Shown here: piece after piece, positions 21,440 through 29,502 of the stretch
Numbering within the stretch: position 1 is the stretch's first letter
Layout: each line of letters begins with the position of its first letter
Assembly: GCA_003170115.1 (NCBI GenBank)
Contig: PMZS01000372.1
Location: forward strand, 1 to 41,439
Source of the DNA: Spirochaetaceae bacterium
Lineage (GTDB): Bacteria > Spirochaetota > Spirochaetia > SZUA-6 > Fen-1364
DNA length: 41,439 bases
Direction: 5' to 3'
Translations under genes and position numbers: made by a program
Notes under the pieces: generated by a model
The model's input: only the letters and a program-made list of their open reading frames with translations
What the model was told of the DNA's origin: nothing
Databases searched by the model: none

Positions 21440-21943
21440 ATACATGATAAACATCTTGCCCGCTCGTCCGGCTTCTTACTTACCCTTGCGCCTGCAATTT
21501 CCGCATGGAGGCGTGGGAGCCTTGTTCCCATCATCGGAAAACCGGTTCTCGCGATTCTTGCGGGGATGTTGCTCTCCTTCTTCAAGTGTCCCGCGTTCCT
21601 CGAAGAGAGCATTCGGTTTTCCGGCAAGAAAGTGCCTAAACATGCGATCATCCTCATTTGCGTCGGGACTTCCATCTGCGGCGGTTCCGCAAAAGCCGCG
21701 ACCGCGCCCGTGATCGAAGCGAATGACGAGGATGTCACATTTGCCATTTCAACGATTTTTCTCTTCAATATCATCGCTGTATTCCTGTTCCCTGCCCTGG
21801 GGCATCTCATAAGAATGTCCGAGGGCGATTTCGGGCTGTGGGCGAGTATGGCAATCAATGATTCCTCCTTGGTCGTTTCAGCGGCCTTTTCCTGCAGCGA
21901 CGCTGTCGGGGGCTTTGCGACGGTCGTCAAGCTCTCCCGCACG
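21440..21943 (+). pseudogene. YeiH/UPF0324-family membrane transporter remnant (no start, internal deletion, truncated)
   Basis: Open frame ...SLVPIIGKPVLAILAGMLLSFF...IRFSGKKVPKHAIIL-ICVGTSICGGSAKAATAPVIEANDEDVTFAISTIFLFNIIAVFLFP...GLWASMAINDSSLVVSAAF...ATVVKLSRT matches family blocks. It lacks the first TM and start codon, about 50 residues between the KK..AI and GTSICG blocks, and the C-terminal half. A possible further fragment lies near 22035-22125 in another frame. Confidence 0.6.
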
Positions 21944-22231
21944 CAGCCAGTGCAGCCCTCAACGAAATGGGGAAATTCGGCACCTGCGCCGCGATGGCCG
22001 CCATGGGGGGGTGTCCAGCGTCAACGCCCATCCGGTGAAATATCTTCGCAACGGCGTGCTCCCGATCCTCCTCGGTCTGGCATGCTGGGCGGCCGTTGCC
22101 CTCGTTTCCCTCGGCGTGCAGAGGGCGGGGCTCCCGCCGCTCTCACGGGACAGACATCGGATTGCGGCATGAGGGCGGACATACCCGAGCAGGACCACCG
22201 CGCGCTATATTCTCCATGGGAGAAAAAAACC

Positions 22232-24685
22232 ATGAGAAAAGGTCCCCCAATCGAGCCGGAAGTCGGCCGGAAAGCTGCAAAAGGAACCATCGACTACAAG
22301 ACGATGTCCACCGAAGACGCCCTTCGAGAGCTGGAATCAGCTCCCGATGGTCTCAACTCGGTTGAGGCAGAGAGGAGGCTGAAAACATACGGCAGGAATG
22401 AAGTCACCTCCAGGAAGAGAAATCCGGTCCTCGAGTTCCTGTCCCGGTTCTGGGGACCGATGCCGTGGTTGCTTGAGCTGGCGATCGTGCTATCGGTGTT
22501 CCTGGGGCATGTCCTGGAAGCCATCATCATCGCTCTCCTGATCGTGACGAACGCCATCATCGGTTGCCTGCATTCCCGGAGCTCCCAGAGAGCACTGGAG
22601 CTTCTCAAGGAAAAGCTGGCCGTGAATGCCGCGGTGCGTCGCGAGGGCAAGTGGGTAACCATAAATGCATCCCAGATCGTGCCGGGTGATATCGCGGTGG
22701 TCCAGATGGGAGACATCGTTCCGGCGGATGCCAAGGTCCTGAGCGGCACGCTGTCCGTGGATCAATCCGCATTGACGGGCGAATCACTTTCCGTGGAGGT
22801 CAGCTTGTCGGACATCCTCTACTCAAGCTCGGTCGTAAAGCGCGGAGGGGCTCAATGCCTCGTGGTCAACACGGGGAGCAGTACCTACTTCGGCAGGACG
22901 GCGGAGCTTGTGCAGATTGCGCGACCGAAGTCCCACCAGGAACAGATCATGCTGTCCATCGTGAGGTACATGATGTACCTCGGAATCGCGGCGCTTGCGG
23001 CGGTTGCCGTGGGCGCTCTGCTGATGAAGATAGGAATTCTGTCGGTCGTTGCCTTTGCGGTGATTTTTCTCATGGGCGCCGTGCCGGTGGCTCTGCCCGC
23101 GGTTCTCACCATTGTGCAAGCGGTTGGGGCAATGGAACTTGTCAGGAAAGGAGTACTGGTCACCCGCCTCGATTCCATGGAAGACGCGGCATCTCTCGAT
23201 GTGCTTTGCCTGGACAAGACCGGCACGCTTACCATGAACCAGCTTTCAGTGACCGAGGTCATTCCGTACGCGGGGCATGAGGTAAACGATGTCCTTGCGA
23301 TGGCAGCCCTCACTGCACAGCCGGAGAGCAAGGACGGCCTCGACATCGCGGTTCGTGAGCGTGCGGAAGCTGCCGGCATCAACAACTCGAAATACCGCCA
23401 GATATCGGTCACGCCCTTCGAACCGGCCACCAAGCGCTCCGAAGCGCTCATCCAGGAGGACATGAACCGATTCCGGGCGCTGAAGGGTGCCCCCCAGGTG
23501 GTGCTCTCCCTCTCCCGCCTCACGAATAGCGCTGTGGTGAAGGCGGCCGGCGAGATGGTGGAAACGCTTTCTCGCAAAGGGTCCAGAACCTTGGCGGTGG
23601 CGAAATCCCGATCGGCGGACGGGGATGACTTCGACCTTGTGGGTCTTCTGGCCCTGGCTGATCCACCCCGCCCCGAGGCGAAGGGGATGATCGCGGAGGC
23701 CAGGAATCTGGGAGTGAAGCCCATCATGGTCACCGGCGACAACATCGCAATTGCCCGGCAGATGGCTCTTGAACTGGGCATCGGCGAGAGCGTCATGCGC
23801 ATGGGCGAGCTCGCGGCCTTCAGCGAGACGGAGCAGATGCGGATTATCCAGGGATGCGACGTGCTGGCGGAAGTCTATCCGGAGGACAAGTACAGGGTCG
23901 TGAAGCTCCTGCAGGCTCACGGGCACATGTCAGGGATGACCGGTGACGGTGTCAACGATGCCCCCGCTCTGAAGCAGGCTGAGGTCGGCATCGCGGTCAA
24001 AGGCGCCACCAATGTGGCGAAGGCATCGGCGAGCATGGTTCTCACCGAGCCGGGCATCAGGGTCATCGTCGACGCGCTGAAGACGAGCAGGCAGATCTAT
24101 CAACGGATGCTCACGTGGGTCATCAACAAAGTCACGAAGACGATCCAGCTCGTTGGCATCCTGACCCTGGGCTTTTTCTGGTTGCACGACCTTGTGGTTT
24201 CTCTCCTCGGCATGGCGCTCCTGGTATTCGCCAACGACTTTGTGACGATGACGCTTTCTACGGACAACGTGAAGTACACTAGAAATCCCAACAACTGGAA
24301 CGTGAGGAATGTCACCCTCGCCTCCGCGGGAATCGGGATCTTCTTTGTCCTGGAAGGGTGGCTCACCATCCTGTTTGGCAGGCACCTCTTCCAGCTGACC
24401 GGTGACGGGCTGCGCAGCTTTGTTCTTTTGATGCTCGTTTTCACGAGCCAGTTCAGGATTTACCTCGTGCGCGAGAGGCGTCACTTCTGGGATTCCCGGC
24501 CGGGCCGGGGCATCCTCATCTCCTCTACAGTGGCCATTGTTGTCTTTTCCTTTTTGGGCATCTTTGGAGGAATCATCCAGGGGCTTGGCCTCCTCCCCGT
24601 GCTGTTCGTGCTGACATTCTCGGGGCTCTTCACCCTCGCCGTGGAGCTTCCCAAGTACCATTTTTTCAAGAGACTCGGGCTTTGA
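22232..24685 (+). CDS. P-type ATPase, plasma-membrane proton-pump-like (P3A subfamily)
   Basis: Starts at MRKGPPIEPEV (GGGAGA upstream). Motifs: GLNSVEAERRLKTYGRNEV, TGES, DKTGTLT, MVTGDN, GDGVNDAPALK. The upstream 222 codons of ORF 21566..24685 are the YeiH remnant plus non-coding-like sequence. Confidence 0.9.
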   Translation: MRKGPPIEPEVGRKAAKGTIDYKTMSTEDALRELESAPDGLNSVEAERRLKTYGRNEVTSRKRNPVLEFLSRFWGPMPWLLELAIVLSVFLGHVLEAIIIALLIVTNAIIGCLHSRSSQRALELLKEKLAVNAAVRREGKWVTINASQIVPGDIAVVQMGDIVPADAKVLSGTLSVDQSALTGESLSVEVSLSDILYSSSVVKRGGAQCLVVNTGSSTYFGRTAELVQIARPKSHQEQIMLSIVRYMMYLGIAALAAVAVGALLMKIGILSVVAFAVIFLMGAVPVALPAVLTIVQAVGAMELVRKGVLVTRLDSMEDAASLDVLCLDKTGTLTMNQLSVTEVIPYAGHEVNDVLAMAALTAQPESKDGLDIAVRERAEAAGINNSKYRQISVTPFEPATKRSEALIQEDMNRFRALKGAPQVVLSLSRLTNSAVVKAAGEMVETLSRKGSRTLAVAKSRSADGDDFDLVGLLALADPPRPEAKGMIAEARNLGVKPIMVTGDNIAIARQMALELGIGESVMRMGELAAFSETEQMRIIQGCDVLAEVYPEDKYRVVKLLQAHGHMSGMTGDGVNDAPALKQAEVGIAVKGATNVAKASASMVLTEPGIRVIVDALKTSRQIYQRMLTWVINKVTKTIQLVGILTLGFFWLHDLVVSLLGMALLVFANDFVTMTLSTDNVKYTRNPNNWNVRNVTLASAGIGIFFVLEGWLTILFGRHLFQLTGDGLRSFVLLMLVFTSQFRIYLVRERRHFWDSRPGRGILISSTVAIVVFSFLGIFGGIIQGLGLLPVLFVLTFSGLFTLAVELPKYHFFKRLGL

Positions 24686-25457: not shown

Positions 25458-26126
25458 ATGGCGGTGATCAACGACAGGGATGCGAAGGTTGTTCGGGAAA
25501 GGCTGGCGAAGCTACCGGGCTCGGTGATTCTTGCCATTTTCACCCAGGAATTCGAATGCGAATACTGCCGGCAGACCCGCGAGCTTGCAGAGGAAGTGGC
25601 GGGCTTGTCTGATGGCAAGGTCACGACGAAACTCTACGACCTGGTCAGAGACAAAGCAGAGGCAGACCGGATGGGAGTTGACAAAATACCTGCCCTCGCG
25701 GTGCTCGGCGGCAAGGGTGAGGATTACGGGATCAGGTTTTTCGGCATTCCCGCGGGGTACGAGTTCTCCTCCCTCCTTGAATCCCTGGAAATGGTGGCCT
25801 GGGGGGATTCGGGGCTCTCTCCTGCCACGAGAGAAAAGCTCAAGGGGCTGACATCGCCCCTGAATCTGCAGGTATTTGTGACGCCCACGTGCCCGTACTG
25901 CCCCCGGGCGGTCCTCACGGCGTTCCGTTTCGCCATGGAATCGGAGAAGGTGCGCGCATCGATGGTGGAGGCTTCAGAGTTTCCCCATCTTGCGAACAAG
26001 TACCAGGTTTCCGGTGTTCCACACACCGTTATTGGGGACAGCCCGCAGGCGATGATCGGCGCCTACCCCGAAGCCGCGGCGGCAGACATGGTGGTTGCAG
26101 TGGCTGAGGGCATGAAGGGGGTATAA
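25458..26126 (+). CDS. Protein disulfide oxidoreductase / glutaredoxin-like protein with two thioredoxin-fold units
   Basis: Two redox motifs, CEYC (FECEYCRQ) and CPYC (TPTCPYCP), as in thermophile PDO-type proteins. AAGGAG before the ATG. Confidence 0.8.
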   Translation: MAVINDRDAKVVRERLAKLPGSVILAIFTQEFECEYCRQTRELAEEVAGLSDGKVTTKLYDLVRDKAEADRMGVDKIPALAVLGGKGEDYGIRFFGIPAGYEFSSLLESLEMVAWGDSGLSPATREKLKGLTSPLNLQVFVTPTCPYCPRAVLTAFRFAMESEKVRASMVEASEFPHLANKYQVSGVPHTVIGDSPQAMIGAYPEAAAADMVVAVAEGMKGV

Positions 26127-26163: not shown

Positions 26164-27408
26164 CTATTTCATCAGGGCATCCGCGACGAGTTTCGAGAGG
26201 AACTCGACCTTCATCCCCAGGCCGTAGTGCTCATTCAGGTCCGTGAGCTGCGAATGGCAATTCTCGCAGGCGGTGCTGATGATCGCGGCTTGCGAGGCTT
26301 TCATCTGCTCGGCCTTCACCCTGGCGGACTTCATCCGGAAATCGCTCTCACCGAGCGCCACCAGGCCGCCTCCGCCCCCGCAGCACCAATTGTCGGCGCG
26401 GTTGGGCCGAAGCTCGACGAAGTCCGCGGTGAGATGCCGGATCACGTGGCGCGGCTCCTCGAGGACGCCGCCGTTCCGCGCAATCTGGCAGGGATCGTGG
26501 TACGTGAGGGTTCCCTTCAGGGTTCCCTTGCTGAGCTGGATCCGTCCTTCCCTCAGGTAGCGGGAGATGAGCTGCACGAAGGCGACGACCTTGAAGGGGT
26601 GAACGCCCGTCATGTACTTCATCGCCCTGAAGGCGGTGCCGCATTCCACGATTGCTACTTCCTTCACCTTCAGCCTCACCGCCTCGTCGTGGATGCGCCG
26701 GGCGATGAGCTGCATCTTCTTCGAGTCTCCAAGAAAGGCGGCAAAGTTCACCGCCTCGTACACGCTGAGGGTCCAGCGCTCGCCCGCCGCGTTCATGATG
26801 GCCGCCGCGGGAATGATGGAGTGCTTGCCGGCAAGCGCCACGTACAGAACGTCGGCTCCCTCCGCTTCCACCGTCACAACGGGGTCTTTCGAGTGTGGCC
26901 ACAGAGCGCGGATCTCCGGCGCAAGGTCCTCAACGGCTCTCGTGAAGCCGGGCTTCGTCTCCTCGATGCCCTCTGATTTGGCGATGGACATGTCGGCGAG
27001 CATGGTCAGGAGCTTTGGCTCCTTGTCGGCGCCGATGAGGAGAGCCTTGGCGATGGACATGATGAGCTGGGTGTCGATGCCGAACGGACAGAAGGTCATG
27101 CAGCGCCGGCAGCCCGTGCATGACCACGCGGCGTCCGAAACCTGGTCCATGGTCGCGTCATCCAGGGTGAGTACCTCTCCGAGCCACGGGGCGATCTTCC
27201 CTTCAAGCTTGAAGTACCGCTTGAAAATCTTGCGAATCACCTCGGCCCTGCCCACCGCGGTGTACCGGGCCTGCGGCATCGACGCATAGACATGGCAGGC
27301 CTCCACGCAGACACCGCACCGGGCGCAGGTGTCCAGGTACAGCCTCATGGCGGAGTGCAGCCTGGTCTCGAAAAGCTGTTTCAGTGTGCCGGATATCGCC
27401 GCTTCCAT
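26164..27408 (-). CDS. HdrD/DsrK-like iron-sulfur oxidoreductase (two 4Fe-4S ferredoxin motifs + CCG domain)
   Basis: CARCGVCVEACHVY and CTGCRRCMTFCP motifs. C-terminal cysteine-rich CCG-type domain (YHDPCQ ... NWCCGGGGG ... ACENCHSQL). Starts 4 nt after the stop of the upstream membrane subunit. Confidence 0.85.
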   Translation of the reverse strand: MEAAISGTLKQLFETRLHSAMRLYLDTCARCGVCVEACHVYASMPQARYTAVGRAEVIRKIFKRYFKLEGKIAPWLGEVLTLDDATMDQVSDAAWSCTGCRRCMTFCPFGIDTQLIMSIAKALLIGADKEPKLLTMLADMSIAKSEGIEETKPGFTRAVEDLAPEIRALWPHSKDPVVTVEAEGADVLYVALAGKHSIIPAAAIMNAAGERWTLSVYEAVNFAAFLGDSKKMQLIARRIHDEAVRLKVKEVAIVECGTAFRAMKYMTGVHPFKVVAFVQLISRYLREGRIQLSKGTLKGTLTYHDPCQIARNGGVLEEPRHVIRHLTADFVELRPNRADNWCCGGGGGLVALGESDFRMKSARVKAEQMKASQAAIISTACENCHSQLTDLNEHYGLGMKVEFLSKLVADALMK

Positions 27409-27412
27409 TCCC

Positions 27413-28246
27413 CTATCTCCGCCTGAGCAGGTTGATGGGCATGCTGAAAAACGTGTGCATGATCTTGGAGAATGGCAGGAGCACGAAGAACGACTCCGCC
27501 AGGAGCACGTGGATCACCGCGAAATGGTAATGCGATCCCGGCAGGACCGCGCGCGGGTCCGCAAATGTGAGGCGCGACAGGCCGTCGAAATACTTCGAGA
27601 AGGCCTGCTTCGTCATTACGAATCCGTTCGGGCTCCACGAGTTGCCCCAGCTCATCATGTCCCCGAAGAGGAACAGGAAGAGCAGAAGCAGGAGCAGAAG
27701 GTAGTCGGAAGGGACCGAGATCTCCCTGAGTGGGCTGCGCAGACGCCTGAGCAGGAAGAAAAGGAGCGGAAGAGTCACCGCGACCCCGACTGCGCCCGCG
27801 CCCAGCATGTGCCGGGACCCGGCCGGAAGCAGCCGGAGCTGAGGAATGATATCGAGGTGCCCGAGGATCAGAAGGATGAACGCCGCATGGTAGAGCATGA
27901 GAAACACCCAGAACACGGGGCGATGCCGCCGCACCTGCGGCATGGCGAAAGTGTCCCCGAGTGCGGCGAGGCCGGCGTTGCGGGCCGCCGGGTACAGCCG
28001 GAGGGGGTACGGAGGGGGCGCCGACCGCATTATGGTCACGACCCGCCACACGATCCCGACGAGGAGCGCCAGGATCGAGACGTACACGAGCGGCACCATG
28101 ATGATGTAGTCGATGTGATCGACGACGAGCGCAAACCCGGTATGCGCGACAGCCGACGATGCTGCCGAGGTGGCATCCGTTGTCGTGGCCGCGGCCGCGG
28201 CCGCGGAGGCCGCCGACACCGCATCCGCCCCTGCCTGGGCTGACAT
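27413..28246 (-). CDS. NarI/DsrM/HdrE-like integral membrane di-haem b-type subunit
   Basis: Five predicted TM helices. Conserved His in helix 2 (MLYHAAFILLILGH) and helix 5 (SHYHFAVIHVLL). ATG 28246 is preceded by GGGGAG. The N-terminus has an Ala/Thr/Ser-rich low-complexity segment. Confidence 0.75.
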   Translation of the reverse strand: MSAQAGADAVSAASAAAAAATTTDATSAASSAVAHTGFALVVDHIDYIIMVPLVYVSILALLVGIVWRVVTIMRSAPPPYPLRLYPAARNAGLAALGDTFAMPQVRRHRPVFWVFLMLYHAAFILLILGHLDIIPQLRLLPAGSRHMLGAGAVGVAVTLPLLFFLLRRLRSPLREISVPSDYLLLLLLLFLFLFGDMMSWGNSWSPNGFVMTKQAFSKYFDGLSRLTFADPRAVLPGSHYHFAVIHVLLAESFFVLLPFSKIMHTFFSMPINLLRRR

Positions 28247-28257
28247 GGGTTTCTCCC

Positions 28258-28497
28258 CTATTTCTGCCGTTTCACGTAGATTTTGATGAGGCCCGGCTCC
28301 TGCTTCGTCTCCACGATCGCGTGCCCCATGGTCTTTGCCCACGCGGGAAAGTCCGAAAGCGACCCCGGATCCGTGGTGTACACCTCGATCACTTCCCCGA
28401 TCGCCACCGTCCCGATCTGCTGGCTGATCTTCACGACGGGCATCGGGCAGGCCAGCCCCTTGTAGTCGAGGGTCTTCACAACAGCGTAGTCTGCCAT
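28258..28497 (-). CDS. tusA: TusA-family sulfur carrier protein
   Basis: MADYAVVKTLDYKGLACPMPVVKISQQI contains the diagnostic CP(M)P active-site cysteine motif. 79 aa. GGAGAAGGAG upstream of ATG 28497. Confidence 0.85.
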   Translation of the reverse strand: MADYAVVKTLDYKGLACPMPVVKISQQIGTVAIGEVIEVYTTDPGSLSDFPAWAKTMGHAIVETKQEPGLIKIYVKRQK

Positions 28498-28517
28498 GTC
28501 TCTCTCCTTCTCCCTGT

Positions 28518-29060
28518 CTAGATGAAGAACTGGATTGCGGATTCCTTGGCGTGCGCGAGCATGGTGGCCACCCCGCACACCTCCAGCCCGGGATAGTCGA
28601 TCAGCTCTTCCTTCTTGAACCCCATCAGGTCCATGGACATCTGGCAGGCGTAGATCTTTACCGCGAGTTGTGCCGCCACGTCGTACATCTCGTCGAGACC
28701 GGCCACGTTCTTTTTCTTCATCAGGCCCTTCATCATCGCGGTTCCCATGCCCGCCATGTGCATCTGCGAAAGCTTCAGCTTGTTGCGGCCTTTCGGCAGC
28801 ATCATTGCGAACATCTTCCCCATGAAGTTCTTCCCGCCCACCTTCTTCTGCGGCGCTCTCAAGGCCGGAGTCCCCCAGTAAGTGAAGAACATCACCACTT
28901 TCATCCCCATGGCCGCCGCCCCCGTGGCGATGATCATGGCCGCAAGGTGTTTGTCCAGGTCTCCCGACATCACGATCATGGTGAGCTTGTTCTCGGCCCC
29001 CGGCATGCCCTCCACTTTCAATTTGAGCTCCGCGATTGCTTTGTCGACATCGACGCTCAT
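28518..29060 (-). CDS. DsrE2-type DsrE/DsrF/DrsH-like family protein
   Basis: KLTMIVMSGDLDKHLAAMIIATGAAAMGMKVVMFFTYWG and the Met/Lys-rich insert plus YACQMSMD and EVCGVAT cysteines are typical of the DrsE_2 / DsrE2 group. Overlaps arsR by 4 nt. Confidence 0.8.
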   Translation of the reverse strand: MSVDVDKAIAELKLKVEGMPGAENKLTMIVMSGDLDKHLAAMIIATGAAAMGMKVVMFFTYWGTPALRAPQKKVGGKNFMGKMFAMMLPKGRNKLKLSQMHMAGMGTAMMKGLMKKKNVAGLDEMYDVAAQLAVKIYACQMSMDLMGFKKEELIDYPGLEVCGVATMLAHAKESAIQFFI

Positions 29061-29395
29061 CTTCTCTCTCCTTCCTTACGGATGCTTCGAGCGCCCGCGG
29101 TTTCCGCGTGGCATCCTTCGAGACAGGTGACCAGGTCGCGCAGGCGCGGCTGAGCGAGGCTGTACCGGGCGAATCCGGCTTTTCTCTCCGCGCCTACGAG
29201 ACCGCTCATGCGGAGGATCCGGAGCTGCTGGGACACGATGGCCTGCTGTATGTTGAGCCGCTTCGAAAGGCCGATGACGCTCTCATCCCCTTCGCACAGT
29301 GCGGCGACGATGCGCAGGCGTGCCGGATGGGCAAGCGCCTTGAGGATGTCCGCGAGATATGCTGCCCGCGGGCGCGCCTCTGCCAGGCTTCCCAT
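29057..29395 (-). CDS. ArsR/SmtB-family transcriptional regulator (Cys pattern reminiscent of persulfide sensors)
   Basis: ILKALAHPARLRIVAALCEGDESVIGLSKRLNIQQAIVSQQLRILRMSGLV is a winged-HTH of the ArsR type. Cys34 lies in helix alpha-2, with Cys91/Cys95 near the C-terminus. Confidence 0.85.
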   Translation of the reverse strand: MGSLAEARPRAAYLADILKALAHPARLRIVAALCEGDESVIGLSKRLNIQQAIVSQQLRILRMSGLVGAERKAGFARYSLAQPRLRDLVTCLEGCHAETAGARSIRKEGERR

Positions 29396-29423
29396 GATTG
29401 AACTCCGTCTCTAGAGGGTTGTA

Positions 29424-29446
29424 ACGATATTACTATATCACGATAT
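29424..29446 (-). promoter_or_regulatory. Candidate operator/promoter region of the arsR-dsrE2-tusA operon
   Basis: Direct repeat ACGATAT (29424-29430, 29440-29446) enclosing the inverted repeat GATAT-tact-ATATC (29426-29439). It lies 29-51 nt upstream of the arsR start. The AT-rich minus strand reads GTGATATAGTAATATCG, with -10-like hexamers. Confidence 0.35.
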
Positions 29447-29448
29447 GG

Positions 29449-29502
29449 GGAGGAATGCAAGCACTCTTGCAGGAAGCTCTTGCAGGAAGCGAGCATTCCT
29501 CC
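29449..29502. repeat. 10-bp inverted repeat enclosing a perfect 13-nt tandem duplication
   Basis: ggaggaatgc (29449-29458) / gcattcctcc (29493-29502) flank CTCTTGCAGGAAG CTCTTGCAGGAAG (29464-29476, 29477-29489). Located between the NagB-like stop and the arsR promoter region. Confidence 0.8.

Follow-up and report, generated by a model that had tools for sequence, protein, structure and literature searches.

A conserved gene cassette joining TusA and a DsrE2-like carrier to a DsrMK/HdrDE-like membrane module: a candidate quinone-linked sulfur oxidoreductase

A contig of 41,439 nucleotides from a Spirochaetaceae bacterium (PMZS01000372.1, assembly GCA_003170115.1; hereafter the window) carries an operon in which the genes for two sulfur-carrier proteins, one DsrE2-like and one of the TusA family, directly precede those for a NarI/DsrM-like membrane cytochrome b and for a DsrK/HdrD-like iron–sulfur protein with a CCG domain. 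These four genes, in the order DsrE2-TusA-NarI-CCG, form a conserved core whose arrangement is far beyond chance; the ArsR-family regulator that heads the operon in the window lies outside that core. We judge the chances to be about even that the four genes make up one unit: an oxidoreductase of thiols and sulfane sulfur that sits in the membrane, is linked to quinone, follows the plan of DsrMK and HdrDE and probably works in the reductive direction. The cysteine-carrying substrates of such an enzyme would be TusA (through Cys17) and the DsrE2-like protein (through Cys139), not DsrC or coenzymes M and B (CoM/CoB).

Conservation and spread of the cassette

Relatives of the CCG protein were sought in one genome per GTDB species, and the scan gave at least 314 confirmed relatives, the best 80 of which were kept. 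When the five proteins of the window were compared by tblastn with all of the loci, and the comparison was confined to non-redundant loci whose DNA extends at least 1.9 kb beyond the CCG gene on its upstream side (n = 72), homologues of the DsrE2-like, TusA and NarI-like proteins lay directly upstream of the CCG gene, within 2.6 kb, in 72 of 72. A first-pass annotation of this DNA, which had proposed the operon as a sulfur-relay-to-quinone system, staked that proposal on the linkage being kept in related genomes, and it is kept. The sole departure from the usual order among the loci compared is found in locus L077 (5391-8215), where the genes run DsrE2-NarI-TusA-CCG. The flanking genes, by contrast, vary from locus to locus: all-against-all clustering of the open reading frames in the flanks of 80 loci (L003-L082) revealed no further widely shared family, none being common to more than about 16 loci, and several of the large clusters proved to be artefacts made of antisense reading frames in high-GC DNA. 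Furthermore, the identities of the three partner proteins follow that of the CCG protein (r = 0.78-0.88). Because the linkage is kept while the flanks differ and the partner identities track the CCG protein, the four genes are taken to be passed on together, both by descent and, evidently, by transfer.

Among the matches listed, the named relatives that come closest to the CCG protein are from metagenome-assembled genomes of Spirochaetia, Treponemataceae and Rectinema. More broadly, the best 80 of the at least 314 relatives are spread over at least 10 lineages, which include Spirochaetota, Candidatus Eisenbacteria, Clostridia (Oscillospiraceae and Saccharofermentanales), Nitrospirota, Hyphomicrobiales and Cytophagia, as well as Desulfomonile, Desulfarculales, Syntrophaceae and Syntrophobacteraceae, the last with the isolate Desulfacinum infernum DSM 9756. 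Actinobacteria, Humimicrobiaceae, Chloroflexota and Elusimicrobia are added to the distribution by a sister clade (represented by P0122, 44% identity); its layout is the same, (HTH_5)-DrsE_2-TusA-Nitrate_red_gam-CCG, and it keeps the carrier cysteines and the haem histidines. No dsr gene occurs in the flanks of L003-L082 or in the gene tables of a further six loci (L001, L002 and L083-L086); together with the 41-kb window, these flanks are what the evidence on dsr neighbours covers.

Within the window itself, inspection of the open reading frames agrees with the first-pass annotation in placing five co-directional genes on the minus strand (Table 1), packed as tightly as it had described: the ArsR and DsrE2-like genes overlap by 4 nt (ATGA), and the following gaps are 20, 11 and 4 nt. 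A purine-rich (GGAG-rich) ribosome-binding site precedes the start of each downstream gene, and a generic promoter/terminator scan found no clear terminator after the CCG gene. The gene calls of JGI and ENA give the same products of 112, 180, 79, 277 and 414 residues on four independent metagenome contigs that carry an identical CCG protein. A Pfam scan of every sizeable open reading frame of the window also agreed with the earlier statement that dsrAB, dsrC, dsrJOP, hdrABC, sqr, sox and rhodanese genes are absent from it. The window likewise holds no etf genes, and its NarI-like and CCG proteins are encoded by two separate genes.

Table 1. Features of the operon in the window, with Pfam gathering cut-offs in brackets
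Feature	Position	Strand	Evidence
Promoter-like region with candidate ArsR operator	29425..29460	-	read from sequence
ArsR/SmtB-family repressor, 112 aa	29057..29395	-	Pfam HTH_5 45.8 bits (cut-off 22)
DsrE2-like sulfur-carrier protein, DrsE_2 family, 180 aa	28518..29060	-	PF13686 169.4 bits (cut-off 25)
TusA-family sulfur carrier, 79 aa	28258..28497	-	PF01206 79.2 bits (cut-off 28.6)
NarI/DsrM-like membrane cytochrome b, 277 aa	27413..28246	-	PF02665 Nitrate_red_gam 41.1 bits (cut-off 22.9)
DsrK/HdrD-like CCG iron–sulfur protein, 414 aa, predicted cytoplasmic catalytic subunit	26164..27408	-	CCG 50.4 bits (cut-off 20.6), Fer4_8 47.6

Redox subunits and sulfur carriers

Families were assigned by Pfam gathering scores and by the cut-offs of the curated NCBIfam equivalogs, and residue conservation was read from orthologue sets of 80 CCG, 79 TusA, 75 DsrE2-like, 68 NarI-like and 31 ArsR proteins. 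The motifs that the first-pass annotation had picked out are all present, namely ACPMP in TusA, Cys34, Cys91 and Cys95 in ArsR, the histidine pairs of the NarI-like protein and the cysteine motifs of the CCG protein. In the last of these, two CX2CX2CX3C motifs of the [4Fe-4S] ferredoxin type (C28xxC31xxC34xxxC38 and C97xxC100xxC103xxxC107) are followed by Cys256 and by one complete CCG motif, C307-X34-C342C343-X37-C381xxC384. All 14 cysteines (eight cubane ligands, C256 and the five of the CCG motif) are invariant in the 80 orthologues, and they share alignment columns with the proteins that NCBIfam labels as DsrK, so that the full DsrK cysteine set is present. His196, on the other hand, is invariant in the window family and in two outgroups and absent from DsrK, TmcB and HmcF.

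This likeness to DsrK does not extend to membership of that family. DsrK is the best NCBIfam match of the CCG protein, and its score, like those for its nearest competitors, falls below the cut-off (DsrK NF045796, 242 against 400; TmcB NF045724, 238.7 against 735; HmcF NF045711, 211 against 750); the family representative P0121 reaches 259 bits for DsrK, compared with 451 and 413 for the true DsrK proteins P0135 and P0140. An exhaustive search of 1.84 billion representatives at 50% identity returned a single full-length representative of the family (P0121, 534 bits), followed by P0122 with 44% identity and next by P0126, a 661-residue fusion of an N-terminal Nitrate_red_gam domain to a CCG protein, and beyond these a continuum of representatives at 30-36% identity; the CCG protein is 33-34% identical to DsrK. 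In a neighbour-joining tree with 200 bootstraps, for which 20 representatives were labelled with NCBIfam (P0135 and P0140 as DsrK, P0164 as essentially TmcB, P0153 as HmcF-like), every one of the 200 replicates recovers the window family as monophyletic, and 97.5% group it with P0122 and with P0126, its second outgroup. According to the first-pass annotation, a CCG/NarI pair clustering inside the canonical DsrMK clade would have spoken against its proposal; the pair lies outside that clade, since the DsrK-labelled proteins and the Tmc and Hmc groups branch elsewhere, and no dsr genes adjoin it.

Two further members of the superfamily are worth considering. One CCG paralogue, P0128, carries a DsrC domain fused to its C-terminus, and because the two are physically joined, enzymes of this superfamily can evidently travel together with their carrier-protein substrate. 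Another, P0129, is fused to a response-regulator receiver. Sequence searches of solved structures matched no DsrK or HdrD, the sole match being to the CCG region of 9ojn_A. An AlphaFold model, built on a shallow alignment of 13 sequences, is confident in its C-terminal half, which matches the folds of HdrB and LutA; its N-terminal ferredoxin half is poor (mean pLDDT, the predicted local distance difference test score, 63.5) and was not used. Matches of the model to glutamate racemase were set aside as noise at the level of the fold.

The membrane subunit has five hydrophobic helices, with H120 and H130 in helix 2 and H246 and H264 in helix 5, as the first-pass annotation had read them. Both pairs, H120-X9-H130 and H246-X17-H264, are kept in 100% of the 68 orthologues, and their HX9H and HX17H spacing is that of NarI. 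Moreover, H246 and H264 fall on histidine columns when the protein is aligned with the NarI chain of Escherichia coli, columns that we take to be His187 and His205, provided that the numbering of the chain follows that of the protein. Taken with the PF02665 score, the five helices and the four spaced histidines are those of a NarI-type di-haem cytochrome b. As with the CCG subunit, the narrower families lie far off (DsrM NF038037, 16.6 against a cut-off of 300; TmcC NF045723, 33.1 against 240; HmcE NF045716, 16.9 against 275).

The two carriers have in common that each holds exactly one near-invariant cysteine. In TusA this is Cys17 of the CPxP motif, kept in 99% of 79 orthologues and also in the sister clade. 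The protein belongs to Pfam PF01206 and falls short of the narrower NCBIfam TusA equivalog (46.3 against 78); its score for NCBIfam YeeD is 17 bits, and its match to the selenium-related YedF is weak (35 bits). In the DsrE2-like protein the cysteine is Cys139 (within YACQ), which is kept in 99% of 75 orthologues, compared with only 51% for C162. The hydrophobicity of the window protein gives no convincing membrane helix. Its best matches in the PDB are 3pnx_A, a 'putative sulfurtransferase DsrE' (105.8 bits), and 2qs7, the DsrE2B protein SSO1126 (57 bits), with the active-site cysteine aligned. The earlier label 'DsrE2-type' therefore stands at the level of the Pfam DrsE_2 family and fails at that of the NCBIfam DsrE2 family NF047629, the Allochromatium vinosum type, where the score is 84.8 against a cut-off of 210. 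Proteins of the TusA and DsrE families carry persulfide or thiosulfonate on their conserved cysteines (PMC4175335, PMC11094781), and the role of DsrE2 in sulfur relay is still called unclear (PMC11094781).

Regulators, promoter and neighboring genes

The regulator is the part of the operon to which the first-pass annotation gave too much weight: an ArsR protein described as hard-wired to the cassette precedes the DsrE2-like gene in only 28 of the 72 loci. In 13 others, from deltaproteobacteria, Nitrospirota, Hyphomicrobiales and Cytophagia (L038, L047, L048, L062, L072-L076 and L079-L082), its place just upstream of the DsrE2-like gene is taken by a MarR-type (HTH_27) regulator of about 160 residues with conserved cysteines in QCC and ELRC motifs, and the regulators of the sister clade show other cysteine patterns. 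Where ArsR is present, Cys34 lies in helix alpha-2 and a C91-X3-C95 pair, usually in the form CLEGC, lies at the C-terminus; among the 31 orthologues the first is kept in 81% and the pair in 90%.

This cysteine layout had been likened to that of the persulfide sensors BigR and SqrR, a comparison that holds in part. The best solved relatives of the ArsR protein are indeed SqrR (6o8l, 57.7 bits) and BigR (3pqj, 50.2 bits), ahead of NmtR, CzrA, SmtB and CadC. At the level of families, however, the protein passes the cut-off of NCBIfam HTH_metalloreg (72.6 against 55) and fails that of BigR (NF040642, 61.8 against 155). The sensor cysteines are C41 and C107 in SqrR and C42 and C108 in BigR (PMC9774590). 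In the phmmer alignment the column of SqrR C41 and BigR C42 holds Ala31 of the ArsR protein, with Cys34 three residues, or one helical turn, later; the C91-X3-C95 pair lies about where SqrR C107 would fall, the alignment ending before that point. Since the alpha-2 cysteine appears to be shifted and a CX3C pair stands in place of a single C-terminal cysteine, the protein is better described as SqrR/BigR-like than as a member of that group, and the three cysteines may also form a metalloid site. The name TsoR was considered for the protein and dropped, for the match is generic to ArsR proteins (47 against a cut-off of 115) and the name gave no lead in the literature.

Upstream of arsR lies a promoter-like element, TTGCAT (29460-29455) and TATAGT (29437-29432) separated by 17 nt, which a generic sigma-70 scan missed because the -35 element matches at only 3 of 6 positions. 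A palindrome, GATAT-N4-ATATC (29439-29426), covers the -10 element; it occurs once in the window, with 0.01 occurrences expected, and a half-palindrome, ATATCGTGATAT, is adjacent at 29446-35. The same layout, TTGC..-N17-TATA(G/A) with GATAT/ATATC repeats, recurs upstream of arsR in spirochaete loci L003, L004, L006, L012, L064 and others. A palindrome placed over the -10 element would fit an autoregulated repressor, and we regard it as a candidate operator. Between the upstream gene and this promoter there is also a perfect 10-nt inverted repeat, GGAGGAATGC/GCATTCCTCC (29449-29502), whose 34-nt loop holds a tandem 13-nt direct repeat, CTTCCTGCAAGAG twice; the inverted repeat was not seen in the upstream regions of related loci.

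The remaining genes of the window concern sugar transport and metabolism or encode a sigma-54 activator, a P-type ATPase, FeoB, a rubredoxin-fused oxidoreductase, a cytochrome P460 and a thioredoxin-fold protein. The gene for cytochrome P460 (24752-25300, minus strand; PF16694, 117.6 bits) stands two genes downstream of the cassette, and its presence in the contig points to an organism that makes haem proteins. Convergent with the CCG gene is that of the thioredoxin-fold protein (25458-26126, plus strand), which has two domains with CEYC and CPYC motifs; kept in near-identical contigs and not in other related loci, it may be a local thiol-disulfide partner or unrelated. The P-type cation ATPase is encoded by a reading frame of 1039 residues (21566-24685, plus strand), of which the first ~220 codons look like a spurious extension, the true start probably lying near 22223.

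Among the related loci, a few neighbors recur on a smaller scale. A FadL/TodX-family outer-membrane channel (PF03349) is encoded downstream of the CCG gene in L074 (8424-9725) and seven other loci, including L062 and L038; because the substrates of this family are hydrophobic, such a channel could conceivably let in hydrophobic sulfur (S8) or an organosulfur compound. A Flavodoxin_5 protein (PF12724), which we take to be of the HemG family, is encoded downstream on the opposite strand in L008 (8276-8764) and eight other spirochaete loci, and might be linked to haem supply or to quinone-linked electron transfer. In four loci (L086, 3481-3939; L047, L048 and L063, some 2-3 kb downstream) a gene with a rhodanese domain is no more than a few kb away from the cassette, which lends sporadic support to a sulfur-transfer context.

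Proposed function, its alternatives and known systems

It is informative to ask what a unit of this composition might do. The first-pass annotation had proposed that sulfane sulfur on TusA and DsrE2 is reduced or oxidised in exchange with menaquinone, and such a function would fit all of the observations. In the scheme that we favor, sulfane sulfur (polysulfide, elemental sulfur (S0) or persulfides) would be captured as a persulfide on TusA and/or the DsrE2-like protein, and the two carriers, each with its single cysteine, would then be joined through a disulfide or trisulfide into a mixed species, TusA-S-(S)-S-DsrE2, which would take the place that the DsrC trisulfide or CoM-S-S-CoB has in the known systems. 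The CCG subunit would cleave this mixed species at a special iron–sulfur cluster of the DsrK type, with electrons from menaquinol passing by way of the two haems b in the NarI-like subunit and a pair of cubane clusters, so that H2S is freed and the carriers are regenerated. Such a unit would serve its host as an anaerobic sink for sulfane sulfur, be it for detoxification, as an electron sink or in respiration.

Only two points favor the reductive direction: the repressors in front of the operon bear cysteines and belong to a kind that thiol oxidation or persulfidation releases, and the hosts are fermentative or sulfidogenic. For the scheme as a whole it is relevant that Barbosa et al. in 2024, cited in PMC13293266, are said to have found that DsrK reduces the DsrC trisulfide with menaquinol. 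With both directions taken together, we consider a TusA/DsrE2-coupled, quinone-linked sulfur oxidoreductase at least an even prospect and perhaps a rather better one, within which we lean tentatively towards reduction and grant oxidation a smaller share. A more specific form of the reductive proposal, in which the unit would be a hitherto unrecognised, Dsr-independent terminal reductase and the mixed di- or trisulfide of TusA and DsrE2 a protein 'heterodisulfide' that takes the electrons of quinol, strikes us as rather doubtful.

Several considerations weigh against the reductive scheme. Under standard conditions, electrons would have to run uphill from menaquinol (about -74 mV) to sulfane sulfur (about -270 mV), and for this reason the oxidative direction is thermodynamically the easier one. 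The regulatory argument for direction is weak because the regulator is not family-wide and its cysteines do not clearly occupy the SqrR/BigR positions, and a distant dsrC may be present elsewhere in the host genome. Furthermore, DsrE2B of Metallosphaera cuprina, a relative of the DsrE2-like protein, failed to bind TusA in vitro and showed no reaction with any sulfur compound tried (PMC4175335).

A second possibility is that the unit runs in the opposite, SQR-like direction: sulfide and a carrier thiol would yield a persulfide on TusA or DsrE2, with electrons passing through the CCG subunit and the cytochrome b to menaquinone, and the product would be protein-bound sulfane sulfur for thio-cofactor synthesis, tRNA thiolation or further dissimilation. 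We consider this rather unlikely, both as to direction and as to product. Its anatomy would be identical to that of the favored scheme, and on general grounds the reaction is downhill. NarI-CCG fusions also occur among the relatives (P0126), and fusions of the EMO type (ETF:menaquinone oxidoreductase) supply (methyl)menaquinone with electrons taken from a donor in the cytoplasm. EMO, which is named in PMC11094781, differs from the cassette in being a single polypeptide encoded next to etfAB, where the cassette has two genes and no etfAB. That TusA is known to provide the sulfur for thiolating tRNA and for making the molybdenum cofactor (PMC4175335) speaks for the same product. Nonetheless, a repressor released by persulfide would place a persulfide-producing enzyme under positive feedback, the quinol could be re-oxidised in hosts that live by fermentation only if a terminal acceptor were available, and neither the window nor the flanks of related loci hold dsrAB, sHdr, sox or persulfide dioxygenase (PDO) genes.

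The carriers might instead hold thiosulfonate (Cys-S-SO3-) derived from thiosulfate or tetrathionate, which the CCG enzyme would cleave reductively to sulfite and sulfide or persulfide, thereby making the cassette a cytoplasmic module for processing these compounds. TusA and DsrE3A of M. cuprina do bind thiosulfonate after exposure to tetrathionate (PMC4175335), and proteins of the YeeD/TusA type from Spirochaeta thermophila bind thiosulfate according to a work cited in PMC13047784. However, the DsrE2-like protein is nearest to the DsrE2B/3pnx types rather than to DsrE3A, the TusA protein barely registers as YeeD, and in the loci examined the cassette is not accompanied by genes for a YeeE/YedE transporter, a tetrathionate reductase or a sulfite reductase, all of which makes this reading improbable, as to both the chemistry and the module.

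Less probable again is that the pair is an accessory DsrMK paralogue acting on a DsrC encoded elsewhere, with TusA and DsrE2 merely feeding sulfur to DsrC. The cysteine complement and the best NCBIfam match are those of DsrK, and several of the hosts are sulfate reducers (Desulfacinum, Desulfomonile, Desulfarculales). Yet the family forms a separate clade at 100% bootstrap, falls below the cut-offs of both DsrK and DsrM and lacks dsr genes in the flanks of the loci examined; moreover, the cassette occurs equally in Spirochaetota, Oscillospiraceae, Humimicrobiaceae, Actinobacteria and Chloroflexota, groups that, to our knowledge, are generally without dsrAB and dsrC. Finally, a unit responding to metals, metalloids or selenium, in which ArsR senses As(III)/Sb(III), Cd or Se and the carriers and reductase handle thio-arsenic or seleno-sulfur species, would accord with the three conserved cysteines of an ArsR/SmtB-family regulator, with the weak YedF match of TusA, with the arsM-like, acr3 (SBF) and arsC (LMWPc) genes directly downstream of a sister-clade cassette (L083, 7573-10272) and with an arsM-like gene ~4 kb downstream in L045, but it is very unlikely, given that ArsR is missing from most loci, that its nearest solved relatives are persulfide sensors ahead of metal sensors and that no metal transporter is conserved with the cassette. 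The general arsenic link to which L083 had pointed was rejected, arsenic genes lying near only 2 of ~85 loci.

The favored reading, a quinone-linked oxidoreductase acting on TusA and DsrE2, can be set beside the systems that the cassette most resembles. DsrMK, the DsrC-trisulfide reductase core of DsrMKJOP in sulfate and sulfite reducers and in rDsr sulfur oxidisers, likewise combines a NarI-type di-haem cytochrome b with a cytoplasmic protein that bears two [4Fe-4S] motifs and one CCG motif, and its presumed substrate is likewise a small cysteine-carrier protein. The cassette differs in that it adjoins TusA and a DsrE2-like protein, with one invariant cysteine each, instead of dsrAB, dsrC and dsrJOP, whereas DsrC has two such cysteines, and in that many of its host lineages are not known for a Dsr metabolism. 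HdrDE, the CoM-S-S-CoB reductase of cytochrome-containing methanogens, also pairs a cytochrome b with a CCG iron–sulfur subunit; in it a quinone-like carrier donates electrons and a heterodisulfide is cleaved at a special Fe-S cluster, a role in which TusA-S-S-DsrE2 would be the protein 'heterodisulfide'. That comparison is one of architecture, the tree containing no HdrD, and the C-terminal fold of the cassette's CCG protein matches HdrB as modelled. The cassette hosts are bacterial and, as far as we know, without CoM and CoB. The transmembrane complexes TmcBC and HmcEF of Desulfovibrio share the combination of a CCG protein and a NarI-like cytochrome b, and the CCG protein scores comparably against them (TmcB 239, HmcF 211), although it is far below their cut-offs and in a different clade, and the cassette has no adjacent gene for a periplasmic multihaem cytochrome c.

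A second set of comparisons concerns the carriers and the regulator. In the rhd-tusA-dsrE2 and sHdr-associated gene sets of Allochromatium, Hyphomicrobium, Aquifex and Metallosphaera, tusA adjoins a DrsE_2-family gene, the carrier cysteines are conserved and there is a link to a CCG-type (heterodisulfide-reductase-like) redox enzyme (PMC4175335, PMC11094781). The partners there are soluble sHdrABC-type and lipoate-binding proteins, or rDsrAB, DsrEFH and DsrC, in sulfur oxidisers; the partner in the cassette is a membrane NarI/DsrK-like pair in anaerobes. The YTD cluster of sulfur disproportionators and cable bacteria (yedE-tusA-dsrE-like-chp-chp; DsrEFH type II) resembles the cassette in its relay of TusA and a DsrE-family protein and in its anaerobic hosts among Desulfobacterota and Nitrospirota (PMC13293266, PMC12998232), but it has no membrane redox module, and the cassette for its part lacks a YedE/YeeE transporter and chp/DsrFH-like genes. 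The persulfide operons that SqrR, BigR or CstR control (sqr, pdo, rhodanese, tauE) are similar to the operon of the window, where an ArsR-family repressor precedes sulfur-handling genes and its candidate operator overlaps the promoter. Those operons remove sulfane sulfur oxidatively and need O2 for the persulfide dioxygenase; the cassette, which has neither PDO nor SQR, would give anaerobes a membrane redox route.

The system had been put forward as possibly undescribed, and a full-text literature search, with some subscription-journal reviews outside its reach, returned no description of the unit; what it turned up were the TusA/DsrE sets of rDsr and sHdr sulfur oxidisers and the YTD cluster only. 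The curated NCBI families name the five proteins only generically, and no NCBIfam equivalog carries a name for the cassette. There is a lesser but real chance that the arrangement has already been noted in passing in the literature, and we know of no functional study of it.

DsrMK, HdrDE and TmcBC have made it clear that cytoplasmic thiol/disulfide chemistry can be coupled to the quinone pool of the membrane, the known thiol substrates being DsrC or CoM/CoB. The cassette points to a third class of substrate, the TusA/DsrE2 sulfur relay, in an arrangement that is strictly conserved and spread over many anaerobic phyla not regarded as sulfur metabolisers. If this proposal is correct, it may account for cryptic reduction of sulfur, or for tolerance of sulfane sulfur, in the fermenters of sediments, peat, groundwater and digesters, and the cassette would be an anaerobic counterpart to the oxygen-dependent SQR/PDO detoxification operons. 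Should the unit prove to be a terminal reductase, it would provide a route of cytoplasmic S0/polysulfide respiration or of anaerobic persulfide detoxification for fermenters and syntrophs in at least 10 lineages, among them Spirochaetota, Clostridia, Atribacterota-like Humimicrobiaceae, Chloroflexota, Actinobacteria, Nitrospirota and Desulfobacterota, and it would give DsrE2-type proteins their first concrete role.

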